A stretch of DNA of 64,000 bases from Escherichia coli 042 (GCF_000027125.1 NC_017626.1); one strand, 5' to 3'. Shown: positions 57,562-61,979, counted from the first letter of the stretch. The notes: generated from the letters alone by a model not told the origin. Translations and numbers: made by a program.

Positions 57562-59148
57562 TCAGCTTTTCAGCCGCCGCCAGAACGTCGTCCGGCTGAT
57601 GCCTAAATAATTCGCCGCTGCTGTTTTATCGCCATTAAATTTCTCCAGTGCCTGTAGTGGTGTCAGCAAGGATGGGGCGGGAATTTTCGCCGACTCGCGC
57701 GCCAGTTCCGGCAGTAGCAGCTGCAAAAATTGCGGCGTTAAATCCGGCGTCGGTTCCACACTTAAAAACAGCGCCAGTCGCTCCATCATATTGCGCAGTT
57801 CACGAATATTGCCCGGCCAGTCGTAGTGCACCAGCACGGTTTCGCTTGCCTGTAATCCCTGGCGTAATGCGGCAGAAAACGGGGCGGAGAGCGCCGCCAG
57901 AGACACTTTCAAAAAGCTTTCCGCCAGCGGCAGAATATCCGTCACCCGCTCGCGCAGTGGTGGCAATTGCAGACGCAAAATACTCAGCCGATAAAACAGA
58001 TCACGGCGAAACTGCCCTTGCCGCATATCTTCTTCCAGATTGCAGTGAGTGGCGCTAATGACTCGCACATCCACCGGAACAGGCTGATGCCCGCCGACGC
58101 GGGTGACCTCTTTTTCTTCCAGCACCCGTAACAGGCGAGTCTGCAAAGGTAGCGGCATTTCGCCAATCTCATCCAGAAACAGCGTACCACCGTGGGCGAT
58201 TTCGAACAGCCCGGCGCGACCTCCGCGTCGCGAGCCGGTAAACGCCCCTTCCTCATAGCCAAACAGCTCTGCCTCCAGCAGCGATTCGGCAATCGCCCCG
58301 CAGTTGACGGCAACAAACGGATGTGACTTTTTGCCCTGTCGCGCATCGTGGCGGGCAAAATATTCCCGATGAATCGCCTGGGCCGCCAGCTCTTTGCCCG
58401 TCCCCGTTTCCCCTTCAATCAACACCGCTGCACTGGAGCGGGCATACAGCAAAATAGTCTGCCGTACCTGTTCCATCTGTGGTGATTGACCGAGCATATC
58501 GCCCAGCACGTAACGAGTACGCTGGGCGTTACGGGTGGCATCGTGAGTGTTATGGCGTAACGACATGCGCGTCATATCCAGCGCATCGCTGAATGCCTGG
58601 CGCACGGTGGCGGCGGAATAGATAAAAATTCCGGTCATTCCGGCTTCTTCTGCCAAATCGGTAATCAGCCCTGCGCCGACCACCGCTTCGGTGCCGTTAG
58701 CTTTCAGCTCGTTAATCTGCCCGCGTGCGTCTTCCTCTGTAATGTAGCTACGTTGGTCGAGGCGCAAATTAAAGGTTTTTTGAAACGCCACCAGCGCTGG
58801 AATGGTTTCCTGATAAGTGACAACGCCGATAGAAGAGGTGAGTTTTCCGGCTTTTGCCAGTGCCTGCAACACATCGTAGCCGCTCGGTTTAATCAAAATA
58901 ACTGGCACTGACAGGCGGCTTTTAAGATATGCGCCGTTAGAGCCAGCAGCGATGATGGCGTCACAGCGTTCGCTTGCCAGTTTCTTGCGGATGTAGGTCA
59001 CCGCTTTTTCAAAGCCAAGCTGGATAGGGGTAATGTTCGCCAGATGATCAAACTCGAGGCTGATATCGCGAAACAGCTCGAACAGGCGCGTCACCGATAC
59101 CGTCCAGATAACCGGTTTGTCGTCATTCAGCCGTGGTGGATGTGCCAT
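57562..59148 (-). CDS. prpR: PrpR, sigma-54-dependent enhancer-binding activator of the propionate operon
   Basis: ORF 57562..59160; start set at [10 protein letters not shown] (ATG 59148); AAA+ sigma-54 interaction domain ([13 protein letters not shown]) and C-terminal HTH. Confidence 0.9.
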
Positions 59149-59209
59149 AGCGCACCGCAAAGTTAAGAAACTGAATATTGGGTTTAGTCTTGTTTCATAA
59201 TTGTTGCAA

Positions 59210-59249
59210 TGAAACGCGGTGAAACATTGCCTGAAACGTTAACTGAAAC
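59210..59249. promoter_or_regulatory. Four direct TGAAAC repeats (candidate PrpR enhancer or other binding sites) in the prpR-prpB intergenic region
   Basis: TGAAAC at 59210, 59220, 59232 and 59244 with 10-12-bp phasing (aatGAAACgcggTGAAACattgccTGAAACgttaacTGAAACgc). Confidence 0.4.
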
Positions 59250-59324
59250 GCATATTTGCGGATTACTTCATGACTTTATCTCTAACAAATTGAAATAAAA
59301 CATTTAATTTTATTCAGGCAATTG

Positions 59325-59340
59325 TGGCACACCCCTTGCT
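59325..59340 (+). promoter_or_regulatory. Sigma-54 (-24/-12) promoter of prpBCDE
   Basis: TGGCAC-ACCCC-TTGCT matches the TGGCAC-N5-TTGCW consensus, 46 bp upstream of the prpB ATG and downstream of the TGAAAC repeats. Confidence 0.75.
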
Positions 59341-59386
59341 TTGTCTTTATTAACGCAAATAACAAGTTGATAACAAAGGATGGGCT

Positions 59387-60277
59387 ATGTCTCTACACTC
59401 TCCAGGTAAAGCGTTTCGCGCTGCACTGACTAAAGAAAATCCATTGCAGATTGTTGGCACCATCAACGCTAACCATGCGCTGTTGGCGCAGCGTGCCGGA
59501 TATCAGGCGATTTATCTTTCCGGCGGTGGCGTGGCGGCAGGTTCGCTGGGGCTGCCCGATCTCGGTATTTCTACCCTTGATGACGTGCTGACCGACATTC
59601 GCCGTATCACCGACGTCTGCTCGCTGCCGCTGCTGGTAGATGCGGATATCGGTTTTGGTTCTTCTGCTTTTAACGTTGCGCGCACCGTGAAATCGATGAT
59701 TAAAGCCGGTGCGGCGGGATTGCATATTGAAGATCAGGTTGGTGCGAAACGCTGCGGCCATCGCCCGAATAAAGCGATCGTCTCGAAAGAGGAGATGGTG
59801 GATCGGATCCGCGCGGCGGTGGATGCGAAAACCGATCCTGATTTTGTGATCATGGCGCGCACCGATGCGCTGGCGGTTGAAGGGCTGGATGCGGCGATCG
59901 AGCGTGCGCGGGCCTATGTTGAAGCGGGTGCCGAGATGTTGTTCCCGGAGGCGATTACCGAACTCGCTATGTACCGCCAGTTTGCCGATGCGGTGCAGGT
60001 GCCAATCCTCGCCAACATTACCGAATTTGGCGCAACACCGCTGTTTACTACCGATGAATTACGCAGTGCCCATGTTGCAATGGCGCTGTACCCGCTTTCA
60101 GCGTTTCGCGCCATGAACCGCGCCGCCGAACATGTCTACAACGTCCTGCGTCAGGAAGGCACGCAGAAAAGCGTCATCGACACCATGCAGACCCGCAACG
60201 AACTGTACGAAAGCATCAACTATTACCAGTACGAAGAGAAGCTCGACGACCTGTTTGCCCGTAGCCAGGCGAAATAA
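59387..60277 (+). CDS. prpB: 2-methylisocitrate lyase
   Basis: 296-aa ORF; isocitrate-lyase/PEP-mutase family signature (KRCGHRP). Confidence 0.9.
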
Positions 60278-60289
60278 AAAACGCCCGTT

Positions 60290-60770
60290 GGTTGTATTCG
60301 ACAACCGATGCCTGATGCGCCGCTGACGCGGCTTATCAGGCCTACGGGATGAACTGAACTGTAGGTCGGATAAGACGCATAGCGTCGCATCCGACAACCG
60401 ATGCCTGATGCGCCGCTGACGCGGCTTATCAGGCCTACGGGGTGAACTGAACTGTAGGTCGGATAAGACGCATAGCGTCGCATCCGACAACCGATGCCTG
60501 ATGCGCCGCTGACGCGGCTTATCAGGCCTACGGGGCGTGCTGAACTGTAGGTCGGATAAGACGTATGGCGTCGCATCCGACAACCGATGCCTGATGCGCC
60601 GCTGACGCGACTTATCAGGCCTACGGGGTGAACTGAACTGTAGGTCGGATAAGACGCATGGCGTCGCATCCGACAACCGATGCCTGATGCGACGCTGACG
60701 CGGCTTATCAGGCCTGCGGGGTGAACTGAACTGTAGGTCGGATAAGACGCATAGCGTCGCATCCGACAAC
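60290..60770. repeat. Tandem REP/BIME array (about five copies of a roughly 90-bp composite unit) between prpB and prpC
   Basis: Near-identical units CGACAACCGATGCCTGATGCGCCGCTGACGCGGCTTATCAGGCCTACGGGGTGAACTGAACTGTAGGTCGGATAAGACGCATAGCGTCGCATC repeated head-to-tail with point variants. Confidence 0.75.
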
Positions 60771-60809
60771 AATCTCGACCCTACAAATGATAACAATGAC
60801 GAGGACAAT

Positions 60810-61979
60810 ATGAGCGACACAACGATCCTGCAAAACAGTACCCATGTCATTAAACCGAAAAAATCTGTGGCACTTTCTGGCGTTCCGGCGGGCAATACGG
60901 CGCTCTGCACCGTGGGTAAAAGTGGCAATGACTTGCATTACCGTGGTTACGATATTATTGATCTGGCGGAACATTGCGAATTTGAAGAAGTGGCGCATCT
61001 GCTGATCCACGGCAAACTGCCGACCCGTGACGAACTCGCCGCTTACAAAACAAAACTGAAAGCCCTGCGCGGTTTACCGGCTAACGTGCGTACCGTGCTG
61101 GAAGCCTTACCGGCGGCGTCGCACCCGATGGATGTCATGCGCACAGGCGTTTCCGCACTCGGTTGCACGCTGCCAGAAAAAGAAGGGCACACTGTCTCTG
61201 GCGCGCGGGATATTGCCGACAAACTGTTGGCGTCGCTTAGCTCGATTCTTCTCTACTGGTATCACTACAGCCACAACGGCGAACGCATCCAGCCAGAAAC
61301 CGATGACGACTCCATCGGCGGTCACTTCCTGCATCTGCTGCATGGCGAAAAGCCGTCGCAAAGCTGGGAAAAGGCGATGCATATTTCGCTGGTGCTGTAC
61401 GCCGAACACGAGTTTAACGCCTCCACCTTTACCAGCCGGGTGATTGCGGGCACCGGCTCTGATATGTATTCCGCGATTATTGGCGCGATTGGCGCACTGC
61501 GCGGGCCGAAACACGGCGGGGCGAATGAAGTGTCGCTGGAGATCCAACAACGCTACGAAACGCCGGACGAAGCCGAAGCCGATATCCGCAAGCGCGTGGA
61601 AAACAGAGAAGTGGTCATTGGTTTTGGTCATCCGGTTTACACCATCGCCGACCCGCGTCATCAGGTGATCAAACGCGTGGCGAAGCAGCTCTCGCAGGAA
61701 GGCGGTTCGCTGAAGATGTACAACATCGCCGATCGCCTGGAAACGGTGATGTGGGAGAGCAAAAAGATGTTCCCCAATCTCGACTGGTTCTCCGCTGTTT
61801 CCTACAACATGATGGGCGTTCCCACCGAGATGTTCACCCCACTGTTTGTTATCGCCCGCGTCACCGGCTGGGCGGCGCACATTATCGAACAACGTCAGGA
61901 CAACAAAATTATCCGTCCTTCCGCCAATTATGTTGGACCGGAAGACCGCCAGTTTGTCGCGCTGGATAAGCGCCAGTAA
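60810..61979 (+). CDS. prpC: 2-methylcitrate synthase
   Basis: 389-aa ORF, citrate-synthase family (GFGHPVYT motif). Confidence 0.9.

Follow-up and report, generated by a model that had tools for sequence, protein, structure and literature searches.

The TGAAAC/GTTTCA hexamers located between the divergent genes prpR and prpB of Escherichia coli 042 are very probably (at a probability of about 0.87) half-sites for the C-terminal HTH of PrpR, jointly constituting the sigma-54 enhancer of prpBCDE. The match to a published consensus half-site, homology, co-occurrence with prpR and the lack of a CRP or IHF fit together argue that these repeats represent the PrpR upstream activating sequence. What was computed here is the clustering of the hexamers, how well it is conserved, its association with prpR, and the promoter, while the Salmonella PrpR footprint, the co-activator role of 2-methylcitrate and the dependence on sigma-54 and IHF come from the literature. 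The control region, its activator, sigma-54, IHF, CRP, 2-methylcitrate and the half-site consensus are already known. Suvorova et al. are said to have covered propionate regulators by comparative genomics in 2012. Mapping the six slots explicitly, showing how the arrangement differs between E. coli and Salmonella, and deriving rules of orientation and spacing that span two classes of proteobacteria may be new, as modest refinements concerning an enhancer that is the switch for the 2-methylcitrate cycle on propionate in both E. coli and Salmonella.

In the window (i.e. the whole 64,000-nucleotide stretch of E. coli 042 DNA that was analysed), positions 59149-59386 represent the spacer between prpR and prpB (Table 1). 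Based on its Pfam domains, the prpR product is a sigma-54 enhancer-binding protein, with a PrpR_N sensor domain (E=1e-51), an AAA+ Sigma54_activat domain (E=1.5e-65), an AAA_lid and a C-terminal HTH_8 at residues 499-527. A 351-bp query across the spacer was matched in 5,219 of 5,426 complete E. coli genomes, and the neighbours were annotated as prpR and prpB in all RefSeq records among the matches listed. The 71-bp module at 59185-59255 was shown to be 100% identical in 4,320 of 5,220 E. coli records (83%), while the surrounding 351 bp reached at least 99% identity in merely 11 of 5,221 records, and sequence differences among Escherichia species map to the spacers between hexamers. The retention of these 71 bp, compared with the variable surroundings and inter-hexamer spacers, is indicative of purifying selection on the hexamer module. 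The control region is absent from ~200 complete E. coli genomes, and records typed as plasmids instead of chromosomes carry 9 of 5,222 matches to it.

Table 1. Features of the prpR-prpB control region and its flanking genes (positions in the window; slots are hexamer positions)
Feature	Position	Strand	Evidence or remarks
prpR	57562..59148	-	ATG at 59148, stop codon ends at 57562; translation, 528 aa; RefSeq annotation in E. coli genomes
Putative PrpR upstream activating sequence (enhancer), six hexamer positions	59192..59249	.	~-159 to -102 from the predicted start site; densest cluster; strongest phylogenetic footprint of the spacer; published consensus match
Slot A, GTTTCA (inverted TGAAAC), left arm of distal dyad	59192..59197	-	In every aligned enterobacterial lineage
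Slot A', GTTGCA, degenerate, 11 bp from slot A	59203..59208	-	Columns nearly invariant
Slot B, TGAAAC(G), right arm of distal dyad	59210..59215	+	Kept in Escherichia, Citrobacter and Salmonella
Slot C, TGAAAC(A)	59220..59225	+	In Escherichia, Pluralibacter gergoviae and the Pseudocitrobacter/Shimwellia group
Slot D, TGAAAC(G)	59232..59237	+	Homologous to the right arm of the proximal dyad of Salmonella, CGTTTCATGAAACG
Slot E, TGAAAC(G)	59244..59249	+	Exact hexamer in Escherichia only
IHF-like site TTTCAATTTGTTA, one mismatch to WATCAANNNNTTR	59283..59295	-	Between enhancer and promoter, ~-68 to -56; ATTG core conserved in alignment
IHF-like match	59294..59306	+	Consensus scan, at most one mismatch
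Sigma-54 promoter of prpBCDE, TGGCACACCCCTTGCT (TGGCAC-N5-TTGCT)	59325..59340	+	GG at -25/-24, GC at -13/-12
Conserved 5'-UTR block TAACAAGTTGATAACAAA	59360..59377	.	Just upstream of the prpB Shine-Dalgarno sequence; conserved columns
prpB (2-methylisocitrate lyase), first gene of prpBCDE	59387..60277	+	ORF; Pfam PEP_mutase/ICL; RefSeq annotation

The four direct copies of TGAAAC start 10, 12 and 12 bp apart, precisely where a first-pass annotation of this DNA had placed four repeats with 10-12-bp spacing (59210-59249). Its count of four holds for the direct copies, but not for the array, which encompasses six positions (two inverted and four direct); the inverted GTTTCA at 59192, the degenerate GTTGCA at 59203-59208 and the extended form TGAAACG had been overlooked. 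This one-base extension is present in three of the four direct copies (59210, 59232 and 59244), with TGAAACA being found at 59220 and, on the - strand, at 59192. Two positions point toward prpR (59192 and 59203) and four toward prpB (59210, 59220, 59232 and 59244), all being about one helical turn apart. TGAAAC does not exhibit an excess across the 64-kb window (42 copies versus 38 expected). Five exact copies, including the inverted one, are situated within 58 bp and represent the densest cluster of any hexamer in the window, and none of 300 first-order Markov simulations yielded a cluster of more than three copies.

Comparison of enterobacterial prp regions, for which the first-pass annotation had regarded a lack of conservation, along with dispensability for activation, as evidence against an enhancer role, revealed that the hexamers are conserved. 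Slots A and B make up a distal dyad, GTTTCAT-N10-ATGAAAC (59192-59215), that is kept in Escherichia, Citrobacter and Salmonella; in a separately fetched S. enterica subsp. enterica locus, slot A reads GTTTTA. In the alignment, the slot A' position is occupied by a perfect GTTTCA in Citrobacter sp. L018, Pseudocitrobacter, Entomohabitans and Shimwellia. Slot D and its following bases (TGAAACGTTA.CTG, 59232-59245) represent the best-conserved block among aligned Enterobacteriaceae, reading TGAAACGTTARCTG in nearly all aligned lineages and TTAAAC in Pseudocitrobacter vendiensis. Slots C and E are exact in some lineages only, which counts against assignment to PrpR: slot C is missing from Citrobacter and Salmonella and reads TGAAAT in E. 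albertii, while slot E is represented by TGACAC, TGGCAC or TGAAGC (one mismatch) in most other genera and diverges more in Pluralibacter gergoviae and Shimwellia. On the prpR side of the array, AGAAAC at 59165-59170 and a conserved GGGTTTAG at 59180-59187 (10 bp to the left of slot A) are degenerate, hexamer-like and in phase with the array; these words at 59165-59187 may represent additional weak contacts of PrpR, or belong to the prpR promoter or to a CRP site.

The half-site identity of the hexamers is derived from Salmonella, for which the PrpR enhancer consensus CGTTTCATGAAACG, a 14-bp palindrome of TGAAACG, is listed in Table 1 of a review on the sigma-54 regulons of Salmonella that credits the footprint of Palacios and Escalante-Semerena 2004 (PMC4987338). 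The comparison with the Salmonella prpR-prpB region, which had been proposed earlier, located this published 14-mer verbatim at the position of E. coli slot D, where the S. enterica subsp. enterica contig reads attCGTTTCATGAAACGttag. That the phased repeats are candidate enhancer sites, as previously suggested, is thus upheld by a half-site of the published consensus, a homologous S. enterica 14-mer and co-occurrence with prpR. The two species are alike in their divergent gene order, half-site, distal dyad (GTTTYAT-N10-ATGAAAC), TGAAACGTTA block at slot D and -24/-12 promoter type, and differ only in arrangement. In Salmonella and most Citrobacter, GTTTCA directly precedes slot D, creating a perfect proximal dyad, GTTTCATGAAAC. 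In contrast, this left half has been lost in E. coli, which reads ATTGCC at 59226-59231 and carries exact TGAAAC at slots C and E, resulting in direct repeats C, D and E instead. The abutting 14-bp dyad CGTTTCATGAAACG is consequently not found in E. coli, where 59225-59238 reads CATTGCCTGAAACG, and the lack of an exact dyad weighs against the PrpR assignment. Palacios and Escalante-Semerena reportedly described the Salmonella PrpR enhancer, in 2004, as two dyads. With regard to E. coli itself, a report citing Lee et al. 2005 states that mutation of a site overlapping the PrpR operator abolished PrpR regulation (PMC9452892).

Co-occurrence of the hexamers with prpR was assessed in a survey of one genome per species using a PrpR N-domain profile scan, which returned 80 loci; the 59 loci in which the divergent prpB product closely resembles that of E. 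coli were retained for analysis. Loci L035-L038, L040-L042, L048, L057, L066 and L075 (Herminiimonas, Herbaspirillum and Duganella) were left out of the hexamer statistics. In each of the five taxon groups (Escherichia; Citrobacter/Salmonella; the Pseudocitrobacter group; Xenorhabdus/Photorhabdus; and Oxalobacteraceae), GTTTCA/TGAAAC was shown to be the commonest spacer hexamer, or at most 0.1 copy short of it; a spacer contains 3.5-4.8 copies, corresponding to 20-64-fold above locus background (~60 loci). Nearly all copies are located 80-190 bp upstream of TGGCAY-N5-TTGCW, with GTTTCA copies almost always situated nearer to prpR and TGAAAC copies nearer to prpB. Neighbouring hexamers are 10-13 or 20-22 bp apart when in the same orientation, and 6-9, 16-18 or 28-29 bp apart when in opposite orientations. 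The same word and the same orientation and spacing rules therefore extend from gamma- to beta-proteobacteria (Oxalobacteraceae). The recognition helix of the PrpR HTH, LG[IV]SRTT[LF]WR[RK]L, is invariant across the groups, and the linker preceding it is hypervariable. In the several Oxalobacteraceae loci thus left out, the gene divergent from prpR encodes another member of the PEP-mutase/isocitrate-lyase family, with 36-39% identity to E. coli PrpB, suggesting that PrpR-type activators in these bacteria may control a different first gene.

The target of the proposed enhancer is a -24/-12 element that represents the sole exact match to TGGCAC-N5-TTGCW in the 64-kb window (0.11 expected), 47 bp before the prpB ATG. 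The first-pass annotation had reported this element, TGGCAC-N5-TTGCT at 59325-59340, about 80 bp from the repeats; the last repeat in fact ends 76 bp before it. From the position of this element, the prpB start site is predicted at ~59351. TGGCAY-N5-TTGCW was observed at an equivalent position before prpB in 48 of the 59 orthologous loci, those of Xenorhabdus/Photorhabdus and Oxalobacteraceae (beta-proteobacteria) among them; the -24 element itself is TGGCAC in E. coli, with Salmonella and Citrobacter having TGGCAT. In vitro, the K-12 prpR/prpB spacer holds a genomic-SELEX peak of RpoN holoenzyme (PMC8743547), and the title of Palacios and Escalante-Semerena 2000 states that ntrA and ihf are required for Salmonella prpBCDE. 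A scan of 59100-59420 revealed no sigma-70 promoters or terminators on either strand, so that the prpR promoter could not be placed, and an Rfam search of 59000-60900 assigned no RNA family to the control region or the 5' UTR.

The distance between slot D and the promoter is 93 bp in E. coli, compared with 104 bp in Citrobacter and 118 bp in Salmonella, and the Enterobacteriaceae distances cluster at 93, 102-105, 116-118 and 124-126 bp. These clusters correspond to steps of roughly one helical turn, which is suggestive only, as the values are few and not independent. Across all taxa, the helical phase between enhancer and promoter was not significant (Rayleigh p ~0.5), an observation that argues against the PrpR assignment. 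Two complementarities in this region were considered and set aside. A perfect 10-nt inverted repeat, ATTGCCTGAA (59226-59235) and TTCAGGCAAT (59313-59322), links slot D to the sequence just upstream of the -24 element; it is kept at 9/10 positions in K-12 and at fewer in E. coli L001, and is probably due to chance, as it is not conserved even within E. coli. The -12 region and the Shine-Dalgarno region are also complementary over 12 nt, but an mRNA structure was rejected, since the upstream arm precedes the predicted start site.

The recognition word of PrpR resembles that of Cra (FruR), a carbon-flux regulator belonging to the LacI family, and the hexamers, especially TGAAACGTTAAC at 59232-59243, might alternatively be Cra operators coupling prp expression to glycolytic flux, an explanation that we consider improbable. 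The left half of the Cra motif (ctgaAtCGaTtcag / gcTGAAtCGaTTCAgc; PMC5888115) is matched by TGAAAC-G, the word TGAA(A/T)C-G being shared by the operator gcTGAAtCGaTTCAgc and the PrpR half-site, and conservation continues past the slot D hexamer (TGAAACGTTARCTG). However, the right half-site of Cra is absent, with the best 16-mers matching 8 of 16 positions of gcTGAAtCGaTTCAgc by our own count. Furthermore, the halves are arranged tail-to-tail in Cra operators (TGAAnC-G-nTTCA), whereas those of the PrpR consensus are head-to-head (GTTTCA-TGAAAC), and the array accompanies prpR as far as Oxalobacteraceae, its rules of orientation and spacing differing from those of a single Cra dyad. The experimental data are divided: the prpB regulatory region is listed as a Cra site from genomic SELEX (Shimada 2011, as cited in PMC5829826) and phosphomimetic Cra lowered prp expression in EHEC, but Cra binding to prpB DNA was undetected by gel shift (PMC5829826), and the main text of an in vivo Cra ChIP-exo study does not mention prp (PMC5888115). 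Cra is thus at most a secondary, overlapping ligand of the PrpR half-sites.

It is more improbable still that the repeats are a cAMP-CRP site, or mainly so, through which prpR and prpBCDE would be catabolite-repressed. According to the literature, the two promoters depend on CRP, which has a site overlapping the E. coli PrpR operator (PMC5566544, PMC9452892), the divergent prpR-prpBCDE pair being assigned a single CRP site (PMC3105977). This reported overlap implies that some of the conservation described above could be shared with another protein. However, TGTGA-N6-TCACA with at most three core mismatches was not encountered in the spacer, where the best match has 4/10 mismatches and lies at background level (~9 expected per 238 bp). 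Similarly, CRP SELEX-chip failed to recover some of the CRP targets listed in RegulonDB, prpB and prpR among them (PMC3105977). As there is no CRP core with fewer than four mismatches and the targets are absent from the SELEX-chip data, any CRP site would be weak and overlap the PrpR sites, rather than constitute the identity of the repeats; moreover, one CRP dimer accounts for one 22-bp site and not for six phased hexamers.

That the repeats are architectural sites for IHF or another nucleoid protein, or a functionless simple sequence duplication, is hardly credible: the region is A+T-rich and Salmonella prpBCDE expression depends on IHF (title of Palacios and Escalante-Semerena 2000; PMC5566544), but none of the hexamers at 59192-59249 is overlapped by a match to WATCAANNNNTTR with at most one mismatch, and the hexamer word is kept, with variable spacers, from E. 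coli to beta-proteobacteria, which rules out neutral duplication. The first-pass annotation had held that sequence could not decide whether the repeats bind PrpR, IHF or CRP; the question can now be decided in favour of PrpR, and the hexamers match neither the CRP nor the IHF consensus. The motif scans that it had called for thus returned an exact sigma-54 element, no CRP core within the three-mismatch limit and IHF-like matches situated outside the hexamers.

These IHF-like matches were obtained by scanning both strands of the spacer for WATCAANNNNTTR, a consensus that is too degenerate to be decisive, and numbered three, versus 0.28 expected per 238 bp. Besides the two listed in Table 1 between enhancer and promoter, a perfect IHF consensus, TATCAACTTGTTA, is present on the - strand at 59360-59372, inside the conserved 5'-UTR block, which itself forms a direct repeat (D1, 78%) with 59283-59300. 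IHF-like sites are thereby found on both sides of the sigma-54 promoter (59283-59295 and 59360-59372), the first of them lying where a DNA-bending site would be expected. Expression of prpBCDE is known to need IHF (PMC5566544).

Taken as the PrpR enhancer, the array would operate as follows. Propionate would be converted by PrpE and PrpC into 2-methylcitrate, the co-activator of PrpR (PMC4987338, PMC5566544, PMC9452892), which would bind the PrpR_N domain and allow PrpR subunits tethered on the array to oligomerise. A DNA bend, probably introduced by IHF at ~59283-59295 (~-62), would bring the AAA+ ring to the sigma-54 holoenzyme waiting in a closed complex at the promoter element, where ATP hydrolysis would lead to an open complex. 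Since the array is only 45-100 bp from the prpR start codon, bound PrpR may also affect the divergent prpR promoter; together with the RefSeq label 'dual regulator' of K-12 PrpR, this proximity makes prpR autoregulation plausible. Within this scheme we infer, rather than observe, that each subunit takes one hexamer, where exactly IHF binds, where transcription starts and that prpR is autoregulated.

The scheme resembles NtrC-type enhancers, which comprise several sites 100-160 bp upstream of a -24/-12 promoter and involve a Fis-type C-terminal HTH, AAA+ oligomerisation and IHF-aided looping. PrpR differs from NtrC, for which the consensus at glnAp2 is TGCACC-N4-TGGTGCA (PMC4987338), in its recognition word and in possessing a ligand-binding PrpR_N domain instead of a phosphorylated receiver. 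Furthermore, the PrpR array mixes inverted and direct hexamers, while NtrC sites are well-separated 17-bp dyads.

A more specific proposal, which we advance tentatively and with considerable doubt, is that the enhancer consists of six slots, and not of 'two dyads', with every subunit of the active AAA+ hexamer having its own DNA hexamer and with slots that can be filled in either orientation, and that Escherichia remodelled the proximal half while function was kept. Filling in either orientation would be permitted by the long hypervariable linker that carries the HTH, and the spacings would obey 11n for the same and 6+11n for opposite orientation. Escherichia may, in this six-slot reading, have changed the proximal head-to-head dyad of Salmonella and Citrobacter into three direct repeats. 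If true, such rules would represent a simple grammar for the assembly of an enhancer-binding protein on DNA, and might explain why a Salmonella-based pPro is ~three-fold stronger than the E. coli one (PMC5566544).

The E. coli prpB control region is in routine use in pPro propionate-inducible vectors and propionate biosensors (PMC5566544, PMC9452892), the engineering of which would benefit from telling PrpR half-sites from spacer, IHF-like site and promoter. Compared with K-12 MG1655, the window is identical over the enhancer (59185-59260) and the promoter element. Three single-base differences are located between enhancer and promoter and one just downstream of the promoter, with further single-base differences in the prpR-proximal spacer (one) and in prpR (one). 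The K-12 PprpB is the promoter used in the pPro vectors of Lee and Keasling (2005) and Lee et al. (2005).

Downstream of prpB, the 532-bp prpB-prpC spacer (60278-60809) was shown to contain tandem 93-bp REP-type units (60291-60770), with four full copies that exceed the gathering threshold of the Rfam family naRNA4 (RF02564) and incomplete copies at either end; these naRNA4/REP copies were the only Rfam hits in 59000-60900. E. coli strains vary in repeat number between prpB and prpC, for which a post-transcriptional role has been proposed (PMC7360682), and the prpB-prpC gap is shorter in K-12.
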